Part shown: positions 14,319 through 62,000 of the stretch, one piece after another
Position numbering within the stretch: the first letter of the stretch is position 1
How the letters are laid out: every line of letters starts with the position of its first letter
Origin: Paraspadella gotoi
Taxonomy: Eukaryota > Animalia > Chaetognatha
Assembly (NCBI GenBank): GCA_051294375.1
Contig: CM119270.1
Coordinates: 5,850,027 to 5,914,026 of the forward strand
Length of the DNA: 64,000 nucleotides
Direction of reading: 5' to 3'
Made by a program: the position numbers and the translations under genes
The notes under the pieces: model-generated
Database searches by the model: none
Seen by the model: the letters and a program-made list of their open reading frames with translations, nothing else
Told to the model about the DNA's origin: nothing

Positions 14319-15499
14319 TGATTGGACCAAGCTTATGCTAATTGACGAAATTAATGCCAGTTGACCAAAGTTGCAAAGTTAACAAGTTTTGCCTGTTCGC
14401 ACCCAAATTAGCTAGTGATAAAATTATGCAGTTAACCAAATTTATGCCGGTTGACACCAATTATCTAAATTGATCAAATTCATGTCAGTTGAACCCAAAA
14501 TTATGTCAGTTGACCAAAATTTTTTTTATTGTTTCATTGTAGACGCCAAATTATGTCAGTTACCCAAATTTATGTATAGTTTGACCAAATTCATGCAGTT
14601 GATTAAATTGATGCAAGTTGACGCAAGATAGCTTATTACACCACTAATTATCGTTTGACCTGGAAATTGTAATGGGAGTAGAAAAGTGTGTGATTGAACC
14701 AGGAAACCAAGTTTCGGATGGAATTTTGAGTGGAATTGAGTTTAAATGGAAAAAACAAAAAACCTGTTTCACTAATTGATTATGCTTCTTTTTCCTTTTT
14801 CATATTATGTATATGCAGCGATGTATTAATTACAAAGTCAAATAATTAATCAGTAATCTAATCAATTAGTCCAAATTAATTAATCAATTAATCTTAAATT
14901 ATCAGTCAATCAATCCGTCCATCCGTCCCACCTTAGCAAAAAGCTCCAATCAACTCGTGAATTGGCTTGGATTGGATGAAATGAAATTTTGTGTGTGGTA
15001 GGAAGTGGTGTGATGAAAGCTGGATATAAAGTTTCGACGGAATCGTGTGAGTGGAAATGAGCTTTAAGTGAGAAAAACATAAGTCGCATTTACTAAATCT
15101 TTTAAGCTTATCTTAACCCAATAAGTATCTCTAATAATCAAAATTGGAGGAAAGATTGAGTTGCAAATTTTTTTTGTGTGGGTAGAAAAATGTGTTTCGA
15201 TGCTTGATATAAAGTTTCGGTGGAAACGTAAACGAGTGGAAATGAGTTTAAATAAAAAAATTATGAGTCACGATTTCACTTGAATCTTTTACTTATTCTT
15301 ACCACTAATAGATTCTAGATGAAGATTTTTGTAGGCTGGGTAAGGAAAGTGTGTGAAAAAGCTAGATTAACTAAATTTTGACAGGAATGTGCAGCTGAAA
15401 TGAGTTTAAAATGAAAAAAAAAAAAAAGTCCACAATTTACTTGAAGCAGAAAAATGATACACGTTAAAAAAATATAAAAGATAAGGATCGTCGCAATGC

Positions 15500-15581
<82 letters not shown>

Positions 15582-16229
15582 CGAGAGCAGCTAAGATGAG
15601 CAGATAGGATCGTCGCAATTTCAAGAGACGAGAGAGAGAGAGAGAGTGAGAGAGAGAGCACGAGCACGAGAGAGATGAGAGAAGATAGAACTTGGATGAG
15701 AAGAGAGTACCGAAGATTAGAAAAATTTAGCTGAATAAAAAAGTGTTATTATTTCATCACTGAATAAAAATACTGTACAAATACTTACAAAATACATAAA
15801 ATTGATAAATTATTATTCCGATAAGACATTGTTTTAATCACATCTGCAATATAATCTAGTAAGCCTAATATCTAGAAGGCGGGCCAAATTGGACACTTTT
15901 TATAACTTCTAGTTCTCTTTAATTTTTTTTTTCTTTTCTACTAAATGATTTCAATTAACTTTTGAATTAGTTCATTGGTTGTTGCACTGAAGCTTTTTTA
16001 AATATTTATTAATCATATAATAATATATAAAGTTATTTGACGGAATTGGTGCCAGGGAGAAATGAGTTTAGATGGAAAAAACCAAGTCACATTTACCTTG
16101 AATCTTTACATATTCAATGATTACTAATAAATGTTTTAAATTAATTAATGATTAATTAATTAATTAATGTGAAAAAAATGATGCCAAGTTAAAAAAATCT
16201 GAAAAAAGAAAATCTCGCAATTGCAGAAA

Positions 16230-19627: not shown

Positions 19628-21578
19628 ACAGGATGAGGCGAAATTCGATGATTACAGTTTTTTCCCAAAGAGTTATGAAACGAACTCGCGAGCGAGCGAG
19701 AGAGAAAGAAAGATAAAAAGCCAGAGTGAGCAAGGAGGGTGAACGCGAGAGAGAGAGAGAGATACCGCCCAGCGCTTTATAACAAGACGTGCGGGAGCAA
19801 GGGGAAAAGATTTATTCTATTATCAAATTGAAAAAACTAAATTTTAAGGGAAAAATCGATTGTAAACAAATAAAATTATTTGAAAAATTATTTTTCATTT
19901 ATTTAAAAACGATTGAAAGATACATAAAAAAAAATAGTTACATTTTACATCAGAGGTCGCCAAAAACAAAACATATGAGCTAATTTTTATACGACAAGAT
20001 GTAAAAACTAAACGACCAAATTGAATGAATAAAAATTGAATAAATATATAAATGAATAGATTAATATCTAAACAAATTAAATAATAAATAAAATGACTGA
20101 CGGAATAATTAAATAATTGAATTAATAATCGAATAAAAGCACGATGAATGAATTGACCGTATCTACTAACGACCCACCGGCTCGGGCGGCCCAGAAGGCA
20201 CAACCGGTCGGGACGCCCCCATCTCTCTATTTCATTTTCCTCCCTGTACACTTCCTCCTCCTCCTCCCTCTCATCCTTCCCACCTTCACCTTTACCCCAC
20301 CCCCCCCACTACCCACCCATCCACCCCCATCGCCCCCCCCATCCCGTCCCCCCGTTAATCGTCGTCTCCCGAATGATCGAAGATTTTGCGTCACGGCAAA
20401 CTGCGAACGCAGTCAAATTTTCAAGCTCGGAGTCGAAACCCTAAGGTTCGCTCGCCGGAGTGCTAATGAACAGAGTCCTTGAGCGAGAATTGAGACTCGG
20501 ACATCAGACCGCAGCCGAACAAAACGGTCCGCGTTCAAAAGTTAATTCTATGAATCGGTAAGAAACGTGAGACCGAAGTTAAAAAAAATAAGCGTCCTTC
20601 CTAATCCAGAGTTTTAGGTTGAGATACAAAAAGTCAATTTAGGTCCGAAATTCGTTATCGTCGTCTTTGATTATATTTTTATTTAATTTGTTTAGTTAAT
20701 ATCATTTTTTTTTAAATTTTGACAGATTCTTCAATTTTTTAAAATCTTCAAAAAGTTGACCAATTGAATCATTATGTTTAACTTCTGTTAAAGAAAAAAA
20801 GAATATTCCGAAAAAGATTCAACGACCAAAGTAGCAATAAATTTTAAAGAAATCCGTCCTATCAACGTTTTGCTATTTGAAGAAAGATAAAAAGCCGCTT
20901 GAAAGAAAAAGTAGCCAGAGAACGAGCGTAAACAGGATGAAGAGAAAAAGTTAAGACGATGAAAAAAAAATGAAGGAGATAAAATGAAGAAAGAAGTAGC
21001 AGAAAAACGAGGAAAGATTTTTACTTAACACAATTTTTTTTTCTCTCTCTCTCTTTTATCGTGTGAAGATTTCTTTCATTCAAGCTTTTCGAGGTCTAGT
21101 TTTTTTATTTTGTTTTTGTTTTTTTAGATAAGATTGTTTTAGCACTTGAGAATAAGTCAATCGTTTTCGTCTACTCAACTGCGTTTTATTATGTTTTTTT
21201 TTCTTTACGGTCCAAAAGATTTTTAATTATTTTGTTTTTAATTAAAATTTATTTAATAAATTTTTAATCGTTTAATTTTCATTAAAATAATTTGAATTTC
21301 TTATGAAAGAACTGTCAAAATTTAATCCAATTTCAAATTGTAATTGTTTTCAATTTTGAATTGATAATTTACATGGCAAATTTTGATGCAAGTTCGTGTT
21401 GACAGCGGACTGACGAAATAGAGACAACTTTCTGTAGGAAATTCTCTAACGCTGATAGAAATACGATGTGATATGCGACTGTCGCAGTCGTTATCATCAG
21501 TTAACATATTTTTAAAATAAGTCATGACCGATTCAAGAAACTTTAAATTAAGACGGAAAGAAAACTTTTATCTTATTT

Positions 21579-21758
21579 ATAGAGAAAAGAAAAAAAGAAT
21601 TTTTGTTTTGTTTACATACAACGAAATTTAATTCACAAAGAGAAAACGTACATGTTTCGGCTGGGTTATTAGCCGAAACATGTACGTTTTCTCTTTTTGA
21701 ATTAAATTTGGTCGTATGTAAACAAAACAAAACAAAATTATTTTTTTCTTTTCTCTAT
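21579..21758. repeat. near-perfect palindrome (foldback/MITE-like)
   Basis: ~85-bp arms '...agagaaaacgtacatgtttcggct GGGTTATT agccgaaacatgtacgttttctct...' with an 8-nt spacer. Confidence 0.9.
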
Positions 21759-22010
21759 ATTTATTTAAATAAATGTATAGAAAAAATCTTCTAGATTACG
21801 TAGTTATTTCTTTTTTATTCATATTGTTAGTAATGAATGCTGCTGTATCATTCTTAATATAAAAAAGAATTCTCATCGAACTATGCCATTTCAAACTAAT
21901 CTTCAATCGTCGATAGATTGTGAATGGAGGCTTCCCCTCGTGTTGAATAAACGAAACGTGACTGGAGACGGCCTCACCATCCAAATCTTGGTCCCCACTC
22001 CTTAACTTAC

Positions 22011-28916: not shown

Positions 28917-31900
28917 ATGGAAAAGCAAACATTTCTATTGCAATTAGTTTTGATTTTCACGCTAAAGACGACTTCAGTGGTGAATGGAGGTAAGTCTTCA
29001 ATGAATGAAAACGTTAATGTGTCTCTAATTTAGCTTGAGGTCAAATATGTAACAGAAAAAGCTAACTATAAAATAAATTCTTTTAAATATTTTCCACTTC
29101 ATTGATAGGGAAGCCAGGTACTCTGGGAGTGAATAAACGAGACTGTGAGAGAGTCTTGATTGAAAGCTTGCAGGGACCTGCTATGTCATTATCTTGTAAG
29201 AGTGATGGAAGCCTTAAACCACCAAAGCCTGTCCAAAGTCAGGGGCAAGATAGCTTATTTATTAAATGAATGGATAATTTTTATATTGGTTGTACCAATT
29301 TCATAAGAGAAGAACGAAAAAATTGTATTTTTAATTTATTATTAAATAATTATTAAATATACATGTTTTGATGTAAACATCAAAACCTCGAAATGGTTTT
29401 TTATTAGTTTTGAAAGCAGAAAAAAAGTTTTTCTGAAAAGTTGTGATTTAACTCTTTAAAAAATATTTTAGTAAATTTGCTAAAATTAAAATATACATAA
29501 ATATATATTTTAACACATGATTAAAAAATAGGTTATATCAGAAAAGGTAAAAAACAACTCAATCAAACACCAACTACAACAAAATTCTTTACTTTTTTAA
29601 GGTTTTTCTTCAAGCTTTATATTCTAAAGTTGTTTAATTAACTAAAATAAAAGCAAGTCACATAGCAACCTAGTTTTATGTCAGCATAATTGTTGACAAA
29701 GTTAAGAAATTTATCTTTCTATTTTTTTAGATGTAATCCCTGTAAAACAATATCGTGATGATTACAAATGCGGGCCAGGCTATCCCATTAATGGACAACC
29801 TTCTATTTGTCAATCGAATGGTGAATTTCCTTGCTGTGCCCCCACTGGGTGGTGTGGAAAAACTTCGGCTCACTGCAGCTGCCCAGAATGTATTGATTAC
29901 TCCAAGACACCAGGTCCACCTTTTTTTTTGTCAAAATGTAAAATCAGATAAAATTATCTGATACTGTACTTTTGTGTGTTACTATCTGACTTTTATACTT
30001 TTATACTTTTATACTTTTATACTGTTAGTATATGAGGATCAACTCACTTTTTGTTTGATTTGTTAGTAGATTCATTTCAAGAGTTTTTCTTCAAGCTTAT
30101 ATTCTTAAGTTTTTTGATTTACTAAAAAAAAGCAAATGACAGAGCAACCTAGTTTTATGTCAGCATGATTGTTGACAAATAACAAAATTGACTTTACTAC
30201 ATTTTTAAAGTTAGAAATTTATCTTTCCATTTTTTTAGATGTAAAACAATTTCGTCATGATTACAAATGCGGAGCAGGCTATCCCATTAATGGACAACCT
30301 GCTATTTGTAATCCAAATGGAGAATTTCCTTGCTGTGCCCCCACTGGGTGGTGTGGAAAGACTTGGGCTCACTGCAGCTGCAAGGGATGTGTTGATTATT
30401 CCAAGATAGAAGGTCAGCAGTCAACTAATTTTATTTAATTTTTTTTTTATTTCTATTCCTTAAATATCTAAATTTCTAGTTTTGTTTTAAGACAAAGATA
30501 AAATTACTAGGTACAAATCTTAAAGCAAAACTCAATGAGATAGTGCCAGGGATTGAGCTAGAGACCCTCCCGACAATTTGGAAGCACTAAAAGCAGGCGC
30601 AAGCCGCACCATATAAGGGGCTTAGCCTTGAAGAGACAGTAGTTATTATTATGTGTTAGTGACAGAACCGTTCAATGTAAGCAGTCCCTGAGCTTCAGAT
30701 CAGGCTGTAACACCATGTTACAGGCGGGTTAAGCACCCCGTCTCTCTTAACTGCTAGGCAGCCACCGGGCTAGAACCCCGGACCTTTAGGTTGGGAGGCA
30801 AATGACTTGCCTCCGAAACCAATGGCCGCTGATGAATGGTTGGTGGATTTTACTCCACCATACATCCCCCCTCCTGTAGGGAGAAGTCTGTTGCGTCTCT
30901 TGAGTGAATTGTTGTTGGTGGAAAGTGCATCACCAAGTTGAGGCATGTCGCCTAATGTGTTGTGGGCGGAAAGTGCATCGCCTGGTTGAGGCATGTCGCC
31001 TGAAAGTGTTGTTGTTGCTGTTGTGTTCGGAAGTCGGGCTCACCAATGAAGAGACAGTAATTATTATTTTGTGTTAGTAACAGAACTGTTCAATGAAAGC
31101 CGTCCCTGAGCTTCGAATCAGGCTGTAACACCGTGTTACAGGCGGGTTAAACGCCCCGTCCCTCTTAACTGCTAGGCAGCCACCGGGCGAGAACCCCGGA
31201 CCTTTGGGTTGGGAGGCGAATGACTTGCCTCCGGCTCCAATGGCCGCTGTTGAACGGTTGGTGGATTTTAGTCCACCATAGCCTCTTTAATGATAGGCCT
31301 TTCCTTAAAGATCCGTGGTACTGAGCGTTTCGAGCTAACCAAGCGCCAACTCATCAGGATGTGTTTAAAGTACCATGGAGGTACAGCTGGCACCTACACC
31401 TGTCTCGTGGTCTCATGGTGTGACGGGTGGGGTGGTAGCTGGAGGAAAAATCTCCCAGATCCATGGGGCTACCCAGGAACCATACCGTCATAGGGTATGG
31501 TTAATGGTTATTGCCTCTCCTTTTGTTCACTTCATTATAATACATGTTTTATTAAATTAATATTTACTTCCGTACTATTTATATATATATCTATATATAT
31601 ATTTATTCGGGAATAAAACACTGGTCACATTTTTTACGTTAATAAATCGAAAGTGTAAATCATTATCAAATCATTATCATTATTATTACTTTCAAATAAA
31701 ATCCTTATCATTATTATTATTACCTTCTTTTTTTCATTTAGGAAGGTTAGGAACCATAATGATAATATTTACTTATGATTTTCAATTTTCAATTGCAATG
31801 TCCGCAATGATCCTTAATTATTTGAATTTTATTTTTAGTGCCATTAGTGCAATTAGTCTTGCTCAATACTCATTTATTGTTTAAATGTCATATTGTTTCA

Positions 31901-32320
31901 AATCGTTTAATCTTTTTATCGTCTTAACTGTCAAATTGTCTCTTTTATTTCAGAAAAAAAAAATCTTTTTTTTCATTTAGGAAATGGTGATTCCGCCGAA
32001 CACAAACAATTTCGTGATGACCTTAAATGTGGTCCAAATTATCCGGTCAACGGAAAACCTGCGATTTGTGACCCAGAAGGAAAATATCCGTGTTGCGCTC
32101 CTTCAGGGTGGTGTGGGAACCAATGGGGTCACTGTAAATGCAAAGATTGTATTGATTATTCCAAGGTACCAAAATCAATTTTTCCATCAATAAGTAGTAA
32201 TCTTTGCAAGTTGCAATAATAAAAAAATATTAGTGAAATAAAATTCTTATTGGGTAACAAAATGAATATGGTTTTTTTTAGATTAAGAGGACGTTGGAAG
32301 AAATCTTTGAAGAAATGTAG
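28917..32320 (+). CDS. secreted protein with three tandem hevein-like (ChtBD1/CBM18-type) chitin-binding modules
   Basis: Exons: 28917-28989 (MEKQTFLLQLVLIFTLKTTSVVNG, signal peptide, G|GTAAGT); 29731-29913 (..YRDDYKCGPGYPINGQPSICQSNGEFPCCAPTGWCGKTSAHCSCPECIDY..); 30239-30412; 31981-32165 (..FRDDLKCGPNYPVNGKPAICDPEGKYPCCAPSGWCGNQWGHCKCKDCIDYSK). It ends either in a last exon 32282-32320 (IKRTLEEIFEEM*) or by read-through to the stop at 32219. All phases are compatible and the 8-Cys pattern is conserved. Confidence 0.88.
29091..29305. mobile_element. dispersed repeat family ending in the ATTGGTTGTACCAAT hairpin
   Basis: Near-full inverted copy at ~51143-51350. Terminal fragments at ~1126-1145, 51467-51530 and 59787-59880. 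Confidence 0.7.
30758..30829 (-). other. tRNA-Gly-like (CCC) sequence in the 3' LTR of the TRIM
   Basis: 72 nt. Acceptor stem GCGGCCA/TGGCTGC, T-arm CCGGG-GTTCTAG-CCCGG, loop CTCCCAA. The anticodon stem is unpaired, so it is not a functional tRNA. Confidence 0.6.
31176..31247 (-). other. tRNA-Gly-like (CCC) sequence in the 5' LTR of the TRIM
   Basis: GCGGCCATTGGAGCCGGAGGCAAGTCATTCGCCTCCCAACCCAAAGGTCCGGGGTTCTCGCCCGGTGGCTGC: 72 nt with a 7-bp acceptor stem and a T-arm. Confidence 0.6.
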
Positions 32321-34795: not shown

Positions 34796-34816
34796 TTATA
34801 TTAAATTTTACAATTT

Positions 34817-35192
34817 ACGCAGTAGGCCATATTTATACTAGTTCTAAACCAATAAATGTTAAAATTTCAAAACAGTTTTTTCTAAGATTTTTTGCAGATT
34901 TGGATATGTCATAAAAAGTTGATAAAAAGAAATATAACTCTTTTTGAAAAATTCCTTCATTAAGTAGGTCAAAAATTAGAAAAAGCTATATTTTAAGCTG
35001 AAAATTAACTTTTTATATATTAAATATAGTTTTTTAAATTGTAACCCACTTAATGAAAGAATTTTTAAAAATGATTTATATTTTCTTTTATCAACTTTTG
35101 ATGAGGAATTCAAATCTGTAATAAAAATTAAGAAAAGCCTATTTTGAATTTTTTCAATTTTATAGTACTATATATAAATATAGCCTACTGCG
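34817..35192. mobile_element. foldback MITE with ~185-bp imperfect inverted arms
   Basis: CGCAGTAGGC.ATATTTATA... vs ...TATAAATATAGCCTACTGCG. Related fragments at ~32860-33080. Confidence 0.7.
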
Positions 35193-35778
35193 AAAATTAA
35201 AAAACATAACTAACTGATGGGTAGGTCCATCATCTCTATCTCTCTATGAGTGAAGTCAAAGGAAAAGTCCAAAAAATAGGCAAAAAAAGTATATTCTCTG
35301 AGAGGGAGCTCTCGAGCTGAAGTAGAACCCAAGACAGAACTAAAATCTCTCTCTCTTTGCTCCTTCTGTCGTCGCTCGATGAGGAGGAAGGGAAAGGGAG
35401 GAAAAAAGGCGGAAGAGGAAGAAGAAAAGGTCTCGAGCGAGAATGGGGAAGAGAAATGAGGGAATTCAGTGAAATATACTTATCCCTCTGTCTGCATAAA
35501 ATTTTTTTTTTTACAAATTAATGTTCACTGATGGTATGTTGTTTATAATTGACTTTTAGAATTTTCGAATGTAACTTTCACTACGCCTTAATATGCATTC
35601 TGGTAGCTCATTTCTATGCTAAAAGGAAATTTCGAAATGGAGCAAATAAAAAATTTAATTTATGAATATTTACTGGGACATATTATCTTTACTACCCTAT
35701 GGCCATTAAACTACAGCAGCTTGAGAAGTTATTTTTATTGTTGATTATCAAAAGTAATTTTAATTTAATTTTTTTTTT

Positions 35779-36072: not shown

Positions 36073-36962
36073 TCTCCAAGACCCTTTCCTTGATTCGGGG
36101 ATAAGGAGGAGGGGACGACCAGGGGAGGAGGAGGAAGAGAGGGGGAAGAGAAGACCTGGGGGAGAGAAATGCCCTGACGTTAGAGTGGCGTCTATCTTGT
36201 TAATTTTATTCTGAAGCGGCTACTCTGGCTGAGTTCGATCTCTGTACATAGTCTTGATAAATCAATAACTAATGAAGTTGGGACTCTCTGTATAAAATAA
36301 CAAGTTAATAGCATGGTGCAATCCACTGCAGCATCAGATAAGCGCAACGCAGAGAATAAAAAAAGATTATGTGTCAAAACAGTATTTTTTTATTGTCCTT
36401 ATTAATGATAGCTACCGAGAAGATACTAAATATTCATTAGTAATTTAATGGCAAATGGCATGACCAAAAATAAAATAAAGCGATTTACAACCTACTTTTA
36501 TACAGTCAACAGACACGCAGTCAACAATGATGAAACGGCAATTTAGAAGAATCATCAATATTAGATTGAGTCGACGATAAATGTATAACCACCCACAAAG
36601 GAGATCACCACTCACTTTCGACGCATAAAAACACCATTTAAACACCATTTAAACACCATTTAAACAATTTACTATTTAAAGTGGATTATTAAAAGCTTCG
36701 TCAGAATTACAAAGTTGTAATTGAATCATTTCAATTTGTAAGGTCTACAACTTCGGCATACATTTTTTTATCTTCGCAGGGACAGTTAAGGCACGGCGTA
36801 AAACACGTCACTTTTTTTCTGAATTTAAAAAAAATTGAAAAAGAAAGTGTTTTTTTATAACTTTAAAACAATTAATAATTAATTAATAATTATTTTTAAA
36901 AAATTGAAAAGAAAATGTTTTTTTTTATAACTTGAAAACAAATTAATAATTATGACGTAATC

Positions 36963-37205
36963 TCAAATAAACCTACGTTTTCTGTAGTCGGTGCATGTGA
37001 TGCAATTGCAATGGCTGTACCCATTGCCGCACCATCCATCGTCGCTGCAGCAAGGGAAAACGCCCCCACATATCGATGGCTTTCCATCGACGAGAAAATT
37101 ACCTCCGCAACGGAAGTCGGGCCTGATGAGGCTCGGTTGGGCCACCTTGGGGAGGGAAGGAGTTTGGGCAATGAGAAGAAGTGTGAAAGACAAAAATACA
37201 AGTAG

Positions 37206-37284
<79 letters not shown>

Positions 37285-37285
37285 G

Positions 37286-37320
<35 letters not shown>

Positions 37321-37371
37321 AATAAGGAAAATAATAAAGAAAAAAAAAAGAGAATATAAAAATAAAAATTA

Positions 37372-37447
<76 letters not shown>

Positions 37448-40400
37448 AGGAAGAACGGTAATTCCAATGTGTTGCGCCGCAGTGACTTTATTTTCACGTG
37501 TATTTCCTTTTGATCACATGATATGACATGACATGACATGGCTTAAAAACGATTTTTGCAAGTAAAAGTGTCGAGGAAGAACTAGATATATTATGATGCT
37601 AATGGTGCGAAATAAAATAGTACTCGCCGATTTAATAATGAGGGAAGTGGTAATAAACACATCCCAATTAATTTATTGATGATATAGAACTCGGGTACTC
37701 TCAAATGAAATAAAGTAGACTGAACTTCGAGAAACTTAATTGTTAACTATGTTGCTATTTTGTAAGAAAGTAACTTAATTATTAGATGAATGAATAATTT
37801 CATTGGGAACAAGGATATTACTTACTACTTAGTTCGTAAATAAAGAAAAACTCAAGGTAAAGTTTTTAACGTCAAAAGGTTCATAAACAATGTCAGTCAG
37901 CGGCGAAGAGACAAAAGGCGGGGATGATCATGATCAGAGATCATGGGAAGAGAGATGATTTGACATCTTAGGCAGGACCGTTGTGCTCTTTACTTTATCC
38001 CTTTTTGGTCAGATGAGGATTTTGGTAAGTCGCCAGAACTCGTCAGAACTGATCTACAGCGGTAACTGAAGTGATCTCTTGATTCGACCGTGAACGAGAC
38101 ATAAAAGTTACTAATCGACTCACCTTCTTGATGGAGTTATCCTTGCAGCCCCTGCAATTGCAATGACTCTTCGAACTGCCGCACCGTCCCCAGTATGAGC
38201 AGCATGAGGAAGTGCTGTACGGGTTGCAGATGCTCGGTCTTCCGTAAAGTGGAAACCGATTGCCGCATCGGTTGTCTCCGCGATAAATGCCCAAACTCGT
38301 CTCTGATTTTGTTTTTATAAGAAAGTAAATTAATTAACAAGTTTGAGCAAATAATGCCGGATCTGCTGGCGATAATTCAGAGGAAATCGAATGAATAATT
38401 GACTGATCGATTGAATGATTGATTGATTTGTATATTTTTTTCACTATTCAAAAAATTCAAAAGATTGTTGAATAAATTTGATAAACTTAAATAATACACT
38501 GAACTCAATCAATATTGTTGTTGTTGTTTCGTTCTTCGCTGCTACTTTATTTGATGGGTTTTTTTTTTATTTTTGCATTGTGTTTTTTTATAATTTTTAC
38601 ATTCGTATCTTTATTTAAAAATTCCTTTTCTGTCTTTCTCTTTATTTTTTTTTCTTTTATTCAAAAATGTTTTCTTTTTTTTAGTTTGGTTCATTTTTTC
38701 GTTCAATTGTGGCGGTATATTCACACCGCCTCACAATAATATTTTTTTGATTTAATTCGCTCGTTTTTTTATTACATATTGTTTATTTTTCTTCATTTCT
38801 TTTTAACCAGATTCTTATTAGCAGATTCCGCCTCAAACAATGCATATGTTTTTTCTTCTTTTTTCTCCTGATGACTTATAATTTAAATGTTGACTCTTTT
38901 CACTCACTTCTGCGATAGTCTACGCAATCTTTGCAGCCGCAATGCCACTTTGAACTGCCGCAATATCCTCCACTGGAGCAGCAGTAATGATCCCCATTAG
39001 GGTCGCATTCAGACATCTGCCCGTCCACCATAAAGTTTGGGCCACATCGGAGATCTTGGCGATACAGGGGTTGTTTGCCTCAAAAGACAATTACAATGAA
39101 TTTAGAAGTTGGAAAATTTGTATCGCTATAAGCTACAAAACAAAAGTAACAAAAATTACAGACAACAATTTTCATTATTTTTTTTTCATTTTTTGTCTCA
39201 TGTTTTTGTTAATCTAAAAATCTAAAAACTTCGATTAAGTCATAAGACAATAAGAAAAAATTCATGTTACTACACAAAGACTTGCTTTAACGAAGGTTGA
39301 CTCTCGAACAAGATAAATTTTCCTTACTAATAAATGTAGTAGCAAAATAAAAAAATATTTTTATGTGATGAAATCAAAATTATGCCAAGCAATGATAAAA
39401 ATATTTTAAGAACAATTAGGTGTGAAAATTGTTTTCATATACCTTGTATATTGCATTCATTATGTTCACAAATATGTTGTTCACATGTAATTCCGGTGTA
39501 TTTTGGCTGGCATACGCACTGATAAAAAAACATAATAAGCATTGAAAATTCGATACTCGACTTCAGAGATTTGTATTTTGAGACAGTTTAGAAATACTAA
39601 AAAAGATTTATGCTAAGTTAAGTAGTAGCTTGTAGTTTTTTTTTAAGATTCTAGAACTTCCCAATATTTACTTTTTTATTGCTGCAAGTTCCTCCATTTT
39701 TACAAGGTTTTTGTTTACAGTCAAAGCCGGCGACATTGATTTCACAGTTTATTCCTTTAAATCCATTAGAACAATGGCATTTGTAGGCACTAATGGATAC
39801 TGGAAGTTTCGAGCAAGTTGCCCCATTACATGGATTCGGGTCACAAACTTTTGCTCCATGAATTTGAATATTACTTATTACAACAAATTTATGACCATTG
39901 CGTCGCCCGAATACACTTAACACTTTAATCTTATAGGTTGGAAAAATCTCATAATTTAGCAAGTTCACTACAATTGGCTCTCGATATACAACTTCGTTAT
40001 TTGTCACAAATTTCAAAAGCTTCTCTTTATTGTTGCTATCAATTCCATAAATCTCAAATGTTTTGGGACAATCATATTTCCAATTGGATTTACTAAGCCT
40101 TGGCAAAAAGCTAATTGAGCATGCTGCTTCAGGCTTGGGTAACGTGTAACTTATCCATTGGGGCATTCCGTGTAGACTGTGCCAAATAGTGCTCGAACTT
40201 CCAAAGCCTTTGTCTGGTGTCGCTGTACTATAGACAGATGAAGCTCGAGCAGTTCCTCCTGTAAAATGAGACAGTTTTTTGTTTTTGTTTTAGTGGAGTC
40301 GCGAGTACTCGCGGAGCAACTCTTATACTCATTTTTAGGTCGGTAGTCTGTATTTCTGTTTCTATCTGTATGTCTGTTTATCATCAATCTGTCTTGCTTA

Positions 40401-40564
40401 CGTTTCAATTTCTCCTAAATCCCGTAATACTTCAACTATTTAATTTATATTTAGTAGGTAAGGTAAATAAGGTAAGGACCTATCAATATGTTATCAGAAA
40501 AAGAGGGAAAATGTAGGAGCGGAATCATAATTTTTTTTTCTCTCTCTCTCTCATCCTCTCTCTC

Positions 40565-40628
<64 letters not shown>

Positions 40629-40841
40629 GAAATTTTGCTGGGTTGGGTCCGAGTTTCTGACAAGAGTAAATGTTTAAATTGCGAATTAGAAAGAGCGCAC
40701 ACAACCTGTAAACTAGAAGAATAGTAGAATACATCAGTTCTTGTTATTATATGAGTAGTAATTTTTCAAAAACGTAGCTTTTAAAGGTAGTGTAAAACAC
40801 TGGCCTCAAGCCCCACTTTTGCTTTCAATATTCAATATTCA

Positions 40842-40927
<86 letters not shown>

Positions 40928-42292
40928 CTCTCGCAGATATTTCATGAGTAGTTGAATATACTTTCAAGTTAACTAACCTGTGGCTAAATTTCGATCAGTA
41001 CATGGAAATATGTCCTCTTTTCCAAAAAACTTCATATCCCTAACGAGCACGAACTTCCTGTTTCCGCGCCCAGGGACGTCAAGAATGTTCAGTCGATAAT
41101 ACTTGAAAGCTTCTTCATTGGGAAACGAATGTGTAAAAAACGTATTATCCGGTTCACAAGGCTTCCGGTTTTTTATGTCTACCAAAGTTTTGAAAGATTT
41201 TCCATCGTTTGATCCTTCAAACTTGTACGATTTCGGACAATCTTTTGGTACATTTCCCAAACTGTTATCTCGTCGCGGAAGAAATGTAACTTTGCATATG
41301 GTCTTTCCGGACGGGAATTCATACATTATCCATTGCGGCACACCTAGCCCTGAATGCCACTCTTGTATAGGTCCTGTATAATGAAATAAATTTAGGTTAA
41401 ATTTCCATGAAAAAATGTTCGTAACTACGATCCTCATGTTTACCACGGGTCACAAACCCAAGACTAACATGATGAGATGAGAGAATGATCGCTAATCAGT
41501 TATCGGTCCGCGAGTGAAGATTGAGTCGCAGCTCAGAACTTTTTACTCGGAGTGCTTATAAAACCTTTATTGCAGTTTATTAATAGTTTCGAGTTTTGGT
41601 TGTTTACACAGAATCTTCGACAACCACTAAGGATCCAAAGCATTTGAATCTTCTTATTTTCAAACGATCTTATTAAATTTCCCTCATTTTTCGAAATATT
41701 TACCTTGAAAGGCTTTGGCCGCAGTCGCTGAACCCATGTGTGAGGAGGACGTTGCTTTTCCTCCAAGGGCAAGATTAATTGTTCCTTGACATTCTCCTTC
41801 CAATTCTGAAAAAAAAAAAAGGTTTAAAAAATCATAGAAATTCGAAAAAGCATATTTTAGTTTTGCCTTTGCTTAGGCCGCACATACGGCTCCGGAAATG
41901 AGATTTTTATTGGGTTCACAGGTTGGACTTGATCCATTTAGATAATCTTATCCCATTGACATTGCAATAACAAAACGACGGTGTTAAGGTTTGATAATGA
42001 ATGCAATAATATACATTTATAAAATTAGGTTTAACTTACCTCTCGTATCAAAGGAGAGAGATTCGTTGGCGTACATCGTCGCTGGGAATTTTCAAAAAAT
42101 GGTTTAAAATAACGATTAAATTATTTAAAAAGTTACTCACTAAAAAAACTACCTAATGGTAAAAAAAAATTACTTTTACGGTTTATCAACATTTTGCGTG
42201 ACTTAATTTCTCTTACCAGTGGCAATGTTTGTCGCAAACTTCATGGTGCAGATCAAAAATAAAGCGCCGAGGATCCTCATTTGCGCCATCAT
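36963..42292 (-). CDS. secreted mosaic lectin-like protein: signal peptide, 2x F5/8 type C (discoidin/CBM32-like), 2x EGF, 3x hevein-like ChtBD1
   Basis: Exons (minus): 42217-42292 MMAQMRILGALFLICTMKFATNIAT; 42040-42081; 41704-41805 (..NLALGGKATSSS..AAKAFQ); 40978-41373 (..WHSGLGVPQWIMYEF..PKSYKFEGSNDG..FKYYRLNI..); 39672-40258 (second F5/8C plus CDPNPCNGATC..YKCHCSNGFKGINCE, CKQKPCKNGGTC); 39443-39518 (CVCQPKYTGITCE); 38908-39078, 38124-38302 and 36963-37145 (hevein-like modules). Phases match at every junction; the 3' end is ambiguous. Confidence 0.9.
37206..37450. repeat. (AAAG)n microsatellite in an intron
   Basis: Two long AAAG runs. Confidence 0.95.
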
Positions 42293-45009: not shown

Positions 45010-46510
45010 TAGTGTTTCCTCAACCGTTAATTTTTCAACAACTTTTTTAACCGTTAACGGTTAAAATCGGTTAATTTAGTGACTTAGCTTATTTGATAAT
45101 ATAAATGCCAAAAAAAGAAGGAAAACAATTAAAACTTAGTATTCGAATATAATTAATTAATAATCAATAATTAATTCAATATACTGTTTCGACTCTGAAT
45201 TCGAGTCTTCAGCAGCGATTGAGACAGTTTTGAATATCCAAAGGAAATTTGTATTATAGAAGAGTGTCCTTTCTTAATTCTTTTTGAAAAATTTTTTTAG
45301 TCGGATCTGCTTATCAGCAGATCCCAACTCTATAATTCACTTTGTCGGTCCGTCGGTCTGCCCCCTCAATCTTGTCGGGCACTCACTTATATCATGTCAG
45401 AACATCGACTTATGATAAATTATGCAAAAAAATGATGTCCGCCCATCCATCTGTCAGTCCGTCCGTCCGTCCCACCTTAGCAAAAAACACCAATTACTCG
45501 TGATTGGACGGATGGATTGGAACGAAATTTTGTGTGTGGTTAGGGAAGTGTGTGATTGAGCTGGATATAAAGTTTTGATGGAATCGTCCGAGTGGAAATG
45601 AGTTTAAATGGAAAAAACCAAAAAATATATTTCACTATTTGAATACCAATTGCTCATGAGTGAATGGAGCGATTGACCTGAAATTTTGCATGTGGGTAGG
45701 AACGTGTGTGATTAAGCTGGAAATCAATTTTGGATGGAATCGTCAGTGGAAATGAGTTTAAATTGAAAAAACAAAAAACCTGTTTCACTGATTAATTATG
45801 CTTTTTTTTATTTTTATATTAAATGTAAATGCAAGATGTATTAATTAATCAAATAATTAATTACTCAATAATTAATTAATCAGTCAATCAATCAAGTCAA
45901 TCGTTATTGGCATTATTCTAATCGTCATCATTGCTTTTGTTGTGGTTAGTGACGAAAAGACCTAAAAACAAACATTTGGGATCAAATTAATTAATTGATT
46001 GCCTAATTAATTGTTAATTACTTAATTATTAATTAATTAATTATTTACCGATAATGATTGTGGGCAGATCCGACATTATTTGCTCAAACTCAAACTCTTC
46101 TGTAATACAAATTTCCTTTGGATATTCAAAACTGTCTCAAGACTCTCGCCAAATTACGACAAAAGAATGACAAAAGACCGACGAAATAACGAGTAAATAA
46201 TTTGCCGAACTTAAGTTGAGAACAACTTAAGTACTGTCAAATAACTGAGGCGAAACATAATATAAAATAAATAAATAATTAATATAAAAACTTATAAATA
46301 AAAATAATAATAATAATATTATATTTAAAAAAGTGAGTCTGATTTGAGCGCGAAAAACATAATAAGTTAAAGAAAACAAAATATTTTTTACCAAAATATC
46401 TAAATTGGAAAAAATAAAATTTAACCGAATTTAACCGTTAAAATAAAAAAATTAACGGTTAAGTTAAAAAAAATTTTAACGATTAATTTTTAACGGTTGA
46501 GGAATCACTA
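45010..46510. mobile_element. hAT-superfamily non-autonomous element with nested insertions
   Basis: TIRs TAGTGTTTCCTCAACCGTTAA / TTAACGGTTGAGGAATCACTA, exact 8-bp TSD ACAGTAAC (45002-45009 and 46511-46518), and subterminal AACCG/CGGTT motifs. Confidence 0.9.
45296..46090 (+). mobile_element. HINE/DINE-1-like element (short copy) nested in the hAT MITE
   Basis: subTIR GTCGGATCTGC (45300-45310) forming a hairpin with GCAGATCC, (CCGT)n, two internal units, inverted subTIR at 46064-46074. Confidence 0.8.
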
Positions 46511-50920: not shown

Positions 50921-51534
50921 AAGAAGTGCAAATACAAAATGAAAAACGAGCAAAGGAGAAAAAAGCGAATGACTCGATAGTCGATTCTAAATTCGTCTCT
51001 TTAACGAGTTTTAAAGACCTCATTAACATTTTTTTAATTCCCTCATCCGCTGCTAAAAATAACCAGTTTCCATCCGAAATAAATAAATAAAGTTAAATAA
51101 AGTTGCAAGCTTTTCCTCTCTCTCTCTCTCTCTTTCTATGACATTGGTACAACCAATATATAAATTATCCATTCATTTATTAAATAAGCTATCTTGCCCC
51201 TGACTTTGGACAGGTTTTGGTGGTTTAAGGCTTCCCTCACTCTTACAAGATAATGCCATAGCAGGCCCCCGGCAAGCTTTTAATTAAGACACTTTCACAG
51301 TCTCGTTTATTCACTCCCAGATTACCTGGCATCCCTATCAATGAAGTGGAACATATTTCACAGAATGTTTCAATTGTATGAAAAGACCACTCCCTTAAGT
51401 ATTAGATCGGGGAATACTATATTGTACTCCGCAGCATCAAAATACAAGGAGCTGAATTTCATAAAATTGGTACAACCAATATATAAATTATCCATTCATG
51501 AAAATTTAATAAATAAGCTATCTTGCCCCTAAGA

Positions 51535-56086: not shown

Positions 56087-59000
56087 GTTTCAGAGATGGC
56101 AACTTTTTTTCTTCTCCCCCATCCTCTCTGCCCTACGCGTGATTGAGTACATTAAAGGCGAGAACACTTTCGAATGGATTGTGTCTAAACGTCCCAACTA
56201 TATTTCTAAGTCGGTCACTGGAGATTAGGTTGGGGGTCATACGTTTTTGGATTTTTCGCCTCAGAACTCCGGATGTACCCGATTACTTAAAATCCTTGTG
56301 AATACAGGGGGGAAAAAAGTTTGGACCTGCTAAGCTATCAGGAAATTATCCCATTTTCGATCGAAAACAAAGCGTCAAAATCAACAGAGCAAAGAAAAAT
56401 CGATAAAAATCCGCAATTTCAAAAACTTTGTTTTGTTCTGTTTGTTCTGCTTTAGGGATGACAACGTCCATCCGCTTCGACGATGCTAGTTGAGAGACTT
56501 TACAGAAATCCATTCGGGTTAGTTTGGAACTATAAGTCTTAAGGGTTTCCAAAAAGGTATAGAGGCCTTATAAGGGCTATGAGGCTTTCATCACCGGCTT
56601 ACAAGGCTTATTAAGGGCTATGAGGATTATAAGGGCCTATAAGAACTTTTTCAAGAGCTGAAAAGGCTTATAAGGGCTATAAAGGCTTTAAGGGGCTATG
56701 AGAACCACACACAAGGTCTATAAAGTCACTTATGGTTTTGAGGCTGTGAAGAATTCTTTGTTTGCTTCTGCTTTGGCGTTTAAAATTATTTGGTTTAAAA
56801 TATTCGACTTAAAAAACTGGTCAAACGCCGAACGAGGGCGAAAAAAGAGGGAGAAAGGAATGCTCGACCTAATCTTTTTTCACAAAGCCTATTAAGGCTA
56901 TCATATTTCCTCGGAATCTTGGAAGCTCATATCCGCTCCGATTCAACCATTACAATATTAATCGCGTTATCTCTCTAAATATCGAATAAGCTTCTTGGAA
57001 CTAACAAAAAAAGCATGCTCTCTCCCATGACCCTGTCCTCCAGAGTGCGACGCGGCCACTCTGACCGCCAAGAATTCATTCCCCTCTTGGCGCCTCTCTC
57101 GTCAGACCGAACGCGGAATCCGTGAGGGCAGCAGATGGTCGAAGGCCTGCTCGCCGCCGCAGCCAGACTGGACGGCGCCCGCTTTCGAGGCTACAGGGTG
57201 CGGGTGATTGGCGGGAAAGATGTAATTTGGAATTATTATTATTATTAATAGTATGTTTCTGTTAATATTATTCTAATTTAATCATTTCTCATTCCCAGAA
57301 TCTTTAAAAAAAATAAAGTATTTTTTTATAACATTCAGTATTTTTTTTCTGACAGAAAAAGATTTGACATAGGGAGATTAAAAAAAATACACAGAACTAA
57401 AATGCTCACGCTGATTAAATTAAACTCGGTGAAAAAAAAATTTACCCAAAAATATAAATTCAAAAGGAAAAAAACAAATCTAAACGAAACGACATACAAA
57501 TTAAGATTAAATTAATTTAATTAAAACGCAACCGAAAACAGTCTCTCCCGATCGATCGCAAGTTCCATGGACGATTTCTCCTTCGGCACGTCAGAATTCA
57601 GATGGCGGAGGCCATTCCGGAGCTTGACTGCAAGACCGTTAGAAAAGGCGCAGCATAGAGAGAGACGAGAGAGATAAACTATTACACTCGACACAAACAA
57701 CAACGATTAAAAAGGAAAACGACTTCCAACAAAGATGCGAGACCCACCTCCGACGATGAAATGTCGACGCTGACTAGTCGATTCCGAGTGCGAAAAGCTG
57801 AGGATCGTCCGCCACGATTGGGGCTCAAAGGCCTCAGCGCGGCGTTGGAGGTGATAACAGGAAGACAAGAACATGTCAGATCGTCGCTGCCTCTCTTCAG
57901 GCGCGCTTTGGGAGACACGCGGGAGAATAGGATAAAAATCGCGCGCGGGGATCTGAGATCATTGGGAAACGTTAATTGGGAGCGGACGTCTTTCCGGTTG
58001 GTTCATGCGGAGATGGGAGAATTACAGCTACAGAATAGAATTCGTTCTCCTTCCTACAGTCTCTCTCTTGGTACAACGAAGAGAGAGGCATAATTGGTTG
58101 ACACAGAGAAATCTCTCGAGAACGTTTCTATTCGGTGGAACGCAACTTCCACGAATCTCGAGAACTCCTCACGATTGGTTCTTCCTCTGTTGAGGGATAA
58201 TGATGGTACAAAGGAATAATAAATAAGATATACAGAGGTATTTAACTCCCCCAATTCTCGTCTCTCACGAACGCCGCTCCGGATCAAGAGTATCGCGTCC
58301 GCGAGGCGCGCTTCATCCTCTTTCTTCCGCTCCATTCTCGGAAAGACGCGAACGATGGAGCATCTCCTATCCCATCGCCGTTTTGCTCCTTAAGGTCAGT
58401 CGCCCTTTTGCAGGAGCGAATCGAAGCTTTACCATCGTTTTTTTTGGCAAAATGCTGCTCCGTGAGCTTAGCTCTCTTCTAAAGTTCGGTGAATTTAGAG
58501 GAGCAAAGTCTGCTCATTAGACGACGACTAAGCTTTCTCTCCCGCTCAAATATTCATGAATGTAATATTAGAAATATAGATAGTAAAGAATTCTAAGTGA
58601 AAAAGGTTTTTTATTTCATTAATAATTTTTTTTTATTTCAAAATAATAAAAACAACAGGTTACATAAAGGTGACAATAAAGTGACAATAAATACATAAAA
58701 GACAATAAATACCTTAATACTAAAATGATCCAAAATGTTTAACGACCATATAAATGACATGTCACAATGACGTAATGAATAAAGGACCAAAACATGACTT
58801 TAGATTCGTAAATAACATAAAATGAACCAAAACATAATTAAATTTACTCACAACATATAAAATGCATAAAAGGGATCAAATGTATTATCATAACAATTGA
58901 TATAAATTTACATAAAAGACCTTGACCTTATGAACTAATATGGCCGTCAAAATCGTGTAACGACATAACAATGACATGCATAATGACGTAAGAATAAAGG

Positions 59001-62000
59001 TCTAAGACATGACTTAAATGATGTTTAATGGACATTAATAAAGTTTATTAATTTTATAATTTAAAAATTATGTTTTTCAGATTAAGAATGAAATATGTGA
59101 TAAAAACCTCATCGTGTAACTTTCATATCTACTAATTTTCTTAAGTTTTTGCTCCTCTAGGTGACGTAATTGAATGGAGCGAGGCCTTCTGCTCCACAAC
59201 CCCACTTGAGCCGTTATTTATTCTCCTAACGTAATGAATAAAGGACTAAACATGACTTAAATGAAGTTATTGACATTAATCAAAGTTTATTAATTTTATA
59301 AATTTAAAAAATTATGTTTTTCAAGAATTAAGAATGAAATATGATAAAAACCTCATCGTGGTAACCTTTCCATATCTACTATTTTTTAAGTTTTGCTCCT
59401 CTGGTGATGTAATTGAAAGGAGCGAGGCTTCGCTCCACAACCCACTTCGCCGTTATTTTTCTCCTAACAGTAATGAATACAAGGACTAAAACGACTTAAA
59501 TGATGTTATTGACATTAATAAAGTTTATTAATTTTATAAATTTAAAATAATGTTTTTCAGATTAAGAATGAAATATGAGAGAGAAGCTCATAGTGTAACT
59601 TCATATCTACTATTTTTTAAGTTTTGCTCTAATAGGTGATCGTAATTGAATGGAGGCGAGGACTTCTGCTTCCAACAACCACTTCGCCGTATTTAATTCT
59701 CCTAACGTGATTTTGTTATTACATAAACGCTCCCTCTTCCCCTTTGAAATAGCTTACCTACAAAATTTTTTATTTATGTATATGAAATTGGTACAACCAA
59801 TATACAAATAATCCATTCATTAATAAAAAAAAAAACTATCTTGCCCCTGAACTCTTGGACAGGCCTTTGGTTTAAGGTTTTGGTTTAAGGTCTTCAGTTT
59901 AATTTTTGTATCGGTTTTTCATCAATTAATTGATATAAATGATAAATCATTAATTAAATAAAAAAACCAACTCTTTGCTCCATTCCCCCCCCCCCGCATT
60001 TTTTTCCCGCCGCGCTCTCCAGGACGATAACCGGAAAGTTCGTCTCGCCATTTCCGAGATGAAAGGTCGTGTCGTCGAGCTCGTTTGGAGTCCAAAAGCA
60101 TCGGTCAAACACCTTCATCCGACCACAATCGAGGTAAGGGCGCCGTGAGATAGGGTTCAATTAAAAACGGTCAAAAGGAACAAATGAACGCCGAGAGAGG
60201 CGAAGCAGAAACGGAGGAGTTTTTAAAAAAAAAAAAGATTGAAAAGAAGAGAAATCAACGAAAATAGAAAAGATAAATAAAAACGAAAAAAAGATAAGAA
60301 CGAGTGTGAGAAAGTAAGAGAAAAATAGAATAAAAGATAGAAAGAGAGGAAAGCGAAGAAGGAGAGAGAGAGAGAGCGGAAAGAAAGAGGAAAGACGAGT
60401 GAAAGAAAGATAAAGAGGAAGAAAAAAAAAAACAAACAAAAAAAAAGAAACAAAAATAAACAAAACGAAACCTTCTAACAAAGAAACGCCACCCTTTTCC
60501 TCCCTCGCCCCAAACCTCACCCCTTTCCCGACCCCTCCCTCCTCTCTCTTCCCCTCCCCCACCTCGTTCGCCGCCAAAACCAAAAAAAGTTATCCTCTGA
60601 ATTCAAAATGGCGACTCCGCTGTCGCGTCGTAGCCCTCGTTACCTTGCTTTTCGCTCAAAAACTGGAAGTCGAATTCGTCACGAGTTTTTGGATCAGTTG
60701 TGTCTAAGGAACGCTGGGTGGATCCGGTAATTCGCCGGTAATGGGTCGTTGTGGTCGTTGTTGTTGGTTGTTCTGAATTGTTGACGTGGGCGTTTGTTGT
60801 TTGTTGGTCCTCGTCGAATTTCGATCGAAATTCCGGACGAGAGAAAAGATCGTCGATCTGGAGACGTGTTACAGGCGAGAAAACGTATCTAGCTCGTCTC
60901 TCTCGTCATGTCCCTCTCTCTTCCCAGTACTCATGTCATCGTCTCTCTCCCTCTCTCTCCCTTTCTCCTCTCTTTCTGGGACGAAAAAAAAGGACTACGA
61001 TTCTGGGGACGTTCAGGAAACCATCTCTCTCTCTTCCTCTGTCTTATTCTCTCTCTCTCTTTCTCTCTCTCTCTCTCATCTCATCATCTCCTCTGGCTCT
61101 CACTCTTGAGAATCTACGTTTTCTGACAATCTCCGTCCTGGTCTGGGAGTCCGCGACAACGGCGTCCCCGCAACATGAGACCCTCACAGAAATCTTCGGC
61201 CCAGGCGTGACCCTGGCCAAGACCTTACCACAAGATCGGCTGCGTTTGGGGAATGGAGGACAATTCTCCACGCGGATGAAAGCTTACGCTCATACTGCTT
61301 TTACACATCGCGTGCGTCACGCAACTCAGGTGAGGATAAGGAGGTGATGGTGCGATAATTCATTTCTTTTTAGCCTTCTCCGGGTGGAAAGGAAAGAAAT
61401 TGGCACAGAATTTCAGAACCCATTATCCGTTATTCAAACCCTCTTAAATTTAAATTAAATTTTTAAAAAATAACCGCAGATCTCTTCGCGAATGCTTGAG
61501 TCAATTTAAACCCTAACTTAATTGCTAACATAAATCCTTATCCCTACCCTAATCCAAATGTTTAAAGTTTTAAACTTAAAAAACAGATAATTCTGAATTT
61601 TAAATCTGAAGATAGGGCGCCTTGGACATAGACATGGTTAAATATATGTATTTTTTTTTCCAATTTTTAAAAAAAATTCAATCCATTCAGCATTAAGATA
61701 TTTTTACGATACTATTATCTTTTTTCATTCAGGTTGTAGACCCATAATGAATATAATTCAGTTGTGACCCATAATAATATTTGACTGGGATATTTACAAT
61801 TAGAAATTCCATTCAGGACTTCAAGCGGTCAACAACATATCATCGTCCCCTCATGAAGAAATCCTCTGCGGAACAAAAGTTGCCAACGTCAAGATTCAAC
61901 GTTGCCAGGAATCTTTGGGGTCAGAACTAATACTTTATTGTCAAAAGTTCAAAATAAACCTCATAATAATTGTTTTTATTTTTCCCTCTTGCTTTCTTAT

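Follow-up and report, generated by a model that had tools for sequence, protein, structure and literature searches.

TRIMs with tRNA-derived LTRs have been described from six animal phyla under the name Helenus, or TRIMp3 (Kojima, 2024; PMC10886601). Box B of Helenus has the sequence GGTTC, and box A shows TRGCY and YGG in 'most' families. Gypsy elements are the inferred helpers, some Trp-primed families are listed from wasps, and Pol III activity was left unproven in that work (PMC10886601). The portion of the paper that is available gives 4 bp TSDs for animal Helenus; the exceptions are one family and one subfamily, for which the length is left undetermined. A 2026 meeting report cites Helenus, and its available text does so without a ribozyme (PMC12859917). 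Animal retrozymes, in the available part of a 2020 review, have no LTR, PBS or PPT, and twisters are mentioned there only for RTE elements (PMC7761336). In the accessible portion of the chaetognath genome paper the word 'ribozyme' is absent, and CpG methylation of LTR elements is reported (PMC12460157).

The locus described here lies in the window, the whole stretch of 64,000 nucleotides of Paraspadella gotoi DNA that was analysed. It contains a TRIM that is very likely of the Helenus type, and in each of its LTRs a predicted twister ribozyme fold sits behind the tRNA-like part. Coordinates of the features are collected in Table 1.

Table 1. Features of the TRIM and of its predicted RNA, in window positions.
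Feature	Position	Strand	Basis or details
Whole TRIM, 652 bp, without detected coding capacity	30629..31280	-	Repeat comparison; ends from other family copies
5′ LTR, 234 bp, TA..CA	31047..31280	-	Repeat match and family junctions
3′ LTR, 234 bp	30629..30862	-	21 differences from the 5′ LTR
TSD, upstream copy, 4 bp, GCCT	31281..31284	.	Sequence and family-defined end
TSD, downstream copy, 4 bp, GCCT	30625..30628	.	Sequence and family-defined end
PBS, tRNA-Trp type, 1 nt past the 5′ LTR	31033..31045	-	12/13 nt match
Polypurine tract (PPT), 2 nt ahead of the 3′ LTR	30865..30875	-	Sequence
Internal region, 184 bp	30863..31046	-	Repeat analysis
tRNA-derived segment, 5′ LTR	31175..31247	-	A-box-like 31228-31239; B-box-like 31186-31194
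tRNA-derived segment, 3′ LTR	30757..30829	-	A-box-like 30810-30821; B-box-like 30768-30776
Predicted type-P5 twister fold, 5′ LTR	31098..31173	-	General-base G 31160; predicted cut 31149/31148; L4 31110-31117
Predicted type-P5 twister fold, 3′ LTR	30680..30755	-	Predicted cut 30731/30730; private P2 mismatch 30743
Predicted unit RNA, 418 nt, cut site to cut site	30731..31148	-	Inference

The direct repeats are offset by 418 bp and, over the span originally proposed for them, are identical at 211 of 232 positions, the differences being 13 transitions and 8 transversions. The internal region contains a duplication with a period of 48 bp (30910-30953 and 30958-31001). No open reading frame of at least 120 amino acids is present in the TRIM, and there is no second copy of it within the 64 kb window; no autonomous partner was seen in the sequences analysed. 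Contigs from six of nine public sequencing runs of the same organism (three studies) were therefore compared with the window sequence, and they define the family; one run, X9, is a presumed RNA run represented by contigs only and has no bearing on expression. In run X1, 16,419 contigs fell on positions 30300-31700, and summed depth was ∼0.6-3.3 million over the element versus 133-199 in most flank bins. Summed depth is no copy number, and the claim is therefore limited to 'many copies'; the contig junctions place the family at many insertion sites.

These junctions define the ends of the element. Contigs diverge from the window sequence at 31280 (n = 127, 123, 95 and 26 in runs X1, X4, X6 and X9, respectively), at 31281 (n = 31, 34, 20 and 9) and at 31047 (n = 43, 46, 25 and 15), and in the 3′ LTR at 30862 and 30628/30629. 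None of the divergence points listed is at 31278 or 31279, weaker ones lying outside the list. Because the contigs of other copies diverge at the family junctions, the LTR is 234 bp with TA..CA termini and the TSD is 4 bp, read at one locus with the ends fixed by other copies. The sequence-only reading had proposed a 650 bp TRIM with 232 bp TG..CA LTRs and a 6 bp flank duplication, TAGCCT. The element is real, has minus-strand orientation and is a member of a high-copy family, but its ends had been misplaced; the 6 bp duplication resulted from counting in the LTR's own two terminal bases. The Trp-type PBS and the PPT of that reading are both borne out. Two independent SINE copies had been considered as another origin of the repeats; this was rejected on the grounds that family depth runs through the LTR, PBS, internal region and PPT and stops sharply at shared ends. 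The examined copy is an old insertion of a non-coding miniature LTR retrotransposon family.

Flank majority letters of other copies start, and mostly end, with AT, which fits an AT-rich 4 bp target. Approximately 10 contigs per run, in three of four runs, differ from 31277 on, such that the LTR would begin with TG, 2 nt outward; these represent a minor subfamily. TG precedes the 3′ LTR (30863-30864), though most 5′ ends begin with TA (31277-31280), and the difference between TA and TG ends may reflect a shift in integrase end-processing. At 31171-31180, directly behind the tRNA-like part, some contigs switch sequence (loose ends and joints) and likely represent related subfamilies with a common head. 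Among the joints listed there is no empty-site joint, and pattern scans of metagenome contigs gave 0 matches.

The PBS matches the 3′ end of the Apis mellifera tRNA-Trp (Fig. S2 of PMC10886601). The single mismatch to the insect tRNA is at 31039, where the contigs show no variant, and no PBS position has a variant at a share of at least 4% in the family contigs. Perhaps the acceptor stem of the host tRNA-Trp differs, which may explain the fixed mismatch.

The TRIM is antisense in an intron between the second and third of three repeated cysteine-rich exons on the plus strand (29741-29916, 30240-30415 and 32000-32175), which flank it; these gave one weak Chitin_bind_1 match, which falls short of the cut-off. 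The opposite strand has a gene (36950-41449, minus) with similar cysteine-rich exons together with EGF and F5/8 type C domains, gene content that marks the host as an animal, and protein searches with two of its open reading frames found no homologues. Other repeats in the window are long, MITE-like self-inverted repeats (21578-21759, 87%; 34806-35204, 76%), a dispersed repeat present in several copies (29077-29305, 51137-51530 and 59781-59880) and tandem arrays at 13533-15720 and 45294-45901, which are mutually related, and at 58986-59711 (period ∼243 bp).

Each LTR has a segment of 73 nt in which seven base pairs form an acceptor-like stem, the anticodon position reads CCC, and a 5-bp hairpin resembles a T-arm. 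Likeness to tRNA was scored at 23 invariant or semi-invariant tRNA positions at fixed spacing, with dinucleotide shuffles as the null. The 3′ LTR has 20 of the 23 and is the best site in the window, a score reached by 3 of 20,000 shuffles; the 5′ LTR has 18 (208 of 20,000 shuffles). Positions 14, 24 and 57 are missed in both LTRs, and the 5′ LTR misses two more through private changes of the examined copy, other copies mostly having the conserved A58. Of the A-box bases, T8, R9, G10, G18 and G19 are present in the segment. A14 is absent from both LTRs, and most other copies lack it too, those with A14 making up 12% of X1 depth (91 contigs). The B box has a T at position 57. It displays GGTTC in both LTRs, and contigs show no variant at 31191-31195, within which GTTC occupies 31191-31194.

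At the level of the whole molecule the likeness is incomplete. ARAGORN at default settings finds 0 tRNAs; at -ps90 the 3′ LTR segment is the only match in 64 kb, and at -ps85 both LTRs are among eight matches. Rfam RF00005 has no match on the element at E ≤ 10. The acceptor-like and T-arm-like stems are paired, but shifted by one base against the A- and B-box bases; the anticodon stem is paired at three of five positions, and an 8-bp hairpin of the D-loop and anticodon arm is predicted instead, with mean pair probabilities of 0.76 and 0.99. Polymorphic sites number 12 in the 73 positions of the tRNA-like part and 7 in the 85 of the remaining LTR, many of them at CpG. A functional tRNA gene is ruled out by the default ARAGORN result, RF00005 and the predicted fold. 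The segment is a promoter-like relic rather than a tRNA, and its sequence makes it a likely Pol III promoter.

The sequence-only reading had seen here a captured 72-nt tRNA-Gly(CCC)-like cloverleaf. The stem, the CCC and the T-arm-like hairpin do recur in both LTRs, but the length is 73 nt, the stems are off register, and the anticodon stem, the rival 8-bp hairpin and the RF00005 search all argue against a cloverleaf. Assignment to glycine has no other basis than the anticodon letters. Nor are the tRNA stems and boxes more conserved than other LTR parts, as the counts of polymorphic sites reveal, and covariance-model similarity, offered as a check, was not found at the above threshold. The broader proposal, namely that a non-autonomous family of LTR elements has a tRNA-derived and probable Pol III promoter, holds by sequence in both LTRs, but it was already in print, since it equals the definition of Helenus, among which are animal families having 4 bp TSDs, a Trp PBS and TA..CA termini (PMC10886601).

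The 76-nt fold behind the tRNA-like segment is absent from the earlier reading. From 5′ to 3′, its first half consists of a P5 strand, a P2 strand, G-A, three T2 bases, a 6-nt linker and U-A-A; the second half consists of the other P2 strand, G-C, an 8-bp P3 hairpin, a 5-bp P4 with a U-NNN-A-A-G-C loop, and the closing P5 strand. This strand order is that of the type-P5 twister permutation (available parts of PMC5408937 and of the segment table in PMC8501958). The eight conserved single-stranded bases do not differ between the LTRs, and the contigs show no variant at any of them. The N-A-A cleavage loop, the general-base G and A46 are all present, and both LTRs have the L4 loop on a 5-bp P4. 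With pairing tallied from X1 contig letter shares, and T1 and T2 taken as sequence complementarity, the commonest letters pair at 2/2 positions in T1, 3/3 in T2, 8/8 in P3, 5/5 in P4, 7/7 in P5 and 2/3 in P2, or at three in P2 with a bulge. The examined copy has two private changes per fold (in all, two T2 wobbles, one per LTR, one P5 mismatch and one P2 mismatch), as expected for an old insertion; this copy is probably inactive.

Relative to the canonical motif, both bases have changed in the P4 closing pair and in one T2 pair, with pairing kept; the P4 closing pair is A-U, and that of the Rfam consensus is G-C. P1 is reduced to the 6-nt linker, with at most one wobble pair, versus 14-30 nt in all 32 rows of natural P5 twisters. 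The 3-nt P2 strand occurs in 22 of the 32 rows, as in the element. The available text of PMC5408937 describes P1 as dispensable for the twister, and that of a high-throughput study indicates that defects in P1 and P2 and wobble pairs in the pseudoknots are tolerated (bioRxiv 2024.07.11.603121).

Within the fold, 4 of 64 constrained positions are polymorphic, compared with 4 of 12 in loops (Fisher p = 0.019, a small, post hoc comparison in one run); constrained sites display no significant drop in variability versus the rest of the LTR (p = 0.17). Nested folding gives probabilities of 0.79-0.94 for P3 and 0.51-0.98 for P4. P5 is supported in one of four folds, with 0.01-0.02 in the other three, P2 has a probability of 0.0 in all four, and a competing 4-bp hairpin is predicted in which the cut site is looped out. 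Other pairings are seen in the LTR: a possible 9-bp long-range helix (31251-31259/31084-31092, and 418 lower) around the tRNA-like segment and twister fold, with one mismatch per LTR at different pairs, and a 7-bp hairpin at the LTR 5′ end (31260-31278).

A strict twister descriptor was composed from published consensus features, in P1- and P5-type order, after the candidate had been seen. It has a single match in the 64 kb window, in the 5′ LTR (31160/31149/31117), and 1 of 60,000 shuffles matched; the 3′ LTR is missed because of its private P2 change. A looser descriptor finds both LTRs and a site at 54122 when a bulge is allowed (31 of 40,000 shuffles), and the 5′ LTR and 54122 without the bulge (21 of 40,000). 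The site at 54122, on the plus strand, passes only the loose form and is probably due to chance. Phage contigs, which carry many canonical twisters, served as a benchmark: of 111 distinct phage loci preselected by the canonical 16-nt L4 motif, the strict descriptor recovers 87. The remaining 24 fit neither order in the descriptor and may be of type P3 or other permutations. Rfam, applied to 20 of 133 phage loci, identified six P5 and two P1 twisters. On the element, RF03160, RF03154 and RF02684 have no match at E ≤ 10, even when stretches of 101 nt are searched, and the P3 sequence resembles the RF03160 consensus. Hammerhead and HDV-like ribozymes were sought by eye and by Rfam scan and not found; the Rfam scans show no hammerhead in the LTRs. 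From its sequence and layout the fold is in all probability derived from a twister, and it is fairly likely to be active as a ribozyme in young copies.

By a narrow preference, the sequence features suggest that young copies propagate through a self-cut 418-nt RNA that is closed as a circle and copied by a Gypsy-type helper. Pol III would start near 31247 and read through both LTRs, and the transcript would hold both folds. The twisters would then cut at the two predicted sites, leaving 5′-OH and cyclic-phosphate ends. The released unit would consist of one LTR and the internal region, without terminal redundancy. As a double cut leaves no terminal repeat, ordinary strand transfer would be impossible unless the unit were closed. 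A host ligase would join its ends, and the predicted circle junction sequence equals the genomic LTR sequence. tRNA-Trp would prime the helper reverse transcriptase, copying around the circle would restore both LTRs, and the integrase of the helper, likely of Gypsy type, would generate the 4 bp TSD. The same cycle of double cut, circle and helper copying is proposed for plant LTR retrozymes in the available text of PMC4918200. The sense strand of the element has no T4 run, the first being 36 nt beyond its end; this is weak evidence, because 799 of 10,000 shuffles also have none.

If the fold cleaves, the template may nevertheless be linear. An RNA cut in one LTR only would keep a terminal repeat, e.g. 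from the tRNA start to the cut site (∼99 nt), and could be copied by ordinary strand transfer, the ribozyme having replaced a T-run terminator. The missing T4 run is consistent with this, as are the ordinary PBS, PPT and TSD, and the weak P1 and P2 together with the competing hairpin would leave cleavage partial. However, the LTRs of a fresh copy are identical and the 5′ fold is wholly within the predicted transcript, and both folds should therefore cut; in addition, plant LTR retrozymes of the same layout accumulate circles, according to the available part of PMC4918200. The linear template is considered improbable. That a circle serves as the template is an evenly balanced proposition.

The fold may also be non-cleaving, that is, the relic of a dead twister or a structural or packaging signal in a plain Helenus element. 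Such a role would account for the lack of a match to the Rfam twister models, the near loss of P1, a P2 that is not predicted to form, and conservation not significantly above that of the remaining LTR. Against it are the preservation of the catalytic bases and of both pseudoknots in the commonest letters, the two-sided changes relative to the canonical motif, and the rarity of the arrangement in shuffled sequence; a fold of this kind that does not cleave appears unlikely. A different question is whether the resemblance to tRNA is accidental or merely carried along, e.g. an old SINE piece or GC-rich hairpins in an ordinary Pol II TRIM. The failed RF00005 and default ARAGORN searches, the missing A14 and a tRNA part no less variable than the rest would agree with this. 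Yet 20 of 23 positions at exact spacing are rarely reached by shuffling, the B-box core has no variants, and the design matches published Helenus, which makes chance or passenger status very improbable. The full reading, an animal LTR retrozyme in which a terminator-less tRNA-derived Pol III promoter and a P1-less permuted twister lead to a 418-nt circle and to Gypsy-helper insertion at many sites, is put forward tentatively, at slightly under even confidence.

The element and Helenus have in common a non-coding TRIM of <1 kb, a tRNA-like segment in both LTRs with GGTTC and a non-functional tRNA fold, a PBS and PPT, and a 4 bp TSD. In the available Helenus data, the nearest by PBS are Helenus-2_SyJa and Helenus-2_SyUm (Trp) and Gypsy-32_NVi (PMC10886601). 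The element starts with TA, as do 8 Helenus LTR records, whereas 226 start with 'tg' in the part of the data at hand (PMC10886601). Its tRNA-like part is in the 5′ half of the LTR (34-106 of 234), with 128 nt and the twister-like fold behind it and no T-run, whereas in most animal Helenus LTRs examined, from the available records, the tRNA part is near the 3′ end with a T-run just behind (PMC10886601). None of five short motifs of the element occurs in the available Helenus supplement (PMC10886601), and the element is therefore assigned to a family separate from published Helenus. Six short motifs for a twister-like context gave none among the matches listed from the same, partly available data. 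The twister-like fold sets the element's family apart from published Helenus. Cassandra and the element each have a small-RNA-derived Pol III promoter in both LTRs, that of the element by sequence; the Cassandra promoter is derived from 5S, Cassandra is found in plants, and no ribozyme is reported for it (summary in PMC10886601).

The combination of a likely tRNA-derived promoter and a predicted twister fold in an LTR was not found in print; a tRNA in the LTR alone would be another Helenus family. In the openly accessible literature searched, LTR retrozymes are described only from plants and only with hammerheads, and twisters occur only with non-LTR elements; searches of it brought up neither an LTR-borne twister nor an LTR retrozyme from an animal. 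The supplements of bioRxiv 2024.07.11.603121 may list chaetognath or LTR-borne twisters. If the fold is active, ribozyme-driven circular replication of LTR elements would have arisen twice, with different ribozymes, and twisters would have a second biological role. The element would also supply a natural near-P1-less twister, and a Pol III TRIM would have a means of setting its RNA ends with no terminator in the first LTR.

With the type-P5 twister (RF02684) and the Perere-3/RTE variants, in the available part of PMC8501958, the element shares strand order, catalytic bases, T1, T2 and a 3-nt P2. It differs from them in a P1 shrunk to 6 nt, the presence of P3 and an A-U pair closing P4, and its fold sits in an LTR, whereas Perere-3/RTE twisters are at the 5′ end of a non-LTR element (PMC8501958). 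Plant LTR retrozymes (Cervera, Urbina and de la Peña, 2016), as presented in the available text of PMC4918200, resemble the element in being non-coding, in having a small self-cleaving motif per LTR (predicted for the element), in the PBS, PPT and 4 bp TSD, and in a proposed Gypsy helper and a circular template, the latter proposed here. They carry type III hammerheads and use tRNA-Met, whereas the animal element has a twister-like fold and a PBS of tRNA-Trp type. Cleavage and circles have been demonstrated for the plant elements and are predicted for this one (PMC4918200). By analogy, the element would act like an LTR retrozyme, yet would stand outside the class as it is defined, by the hammerhead.
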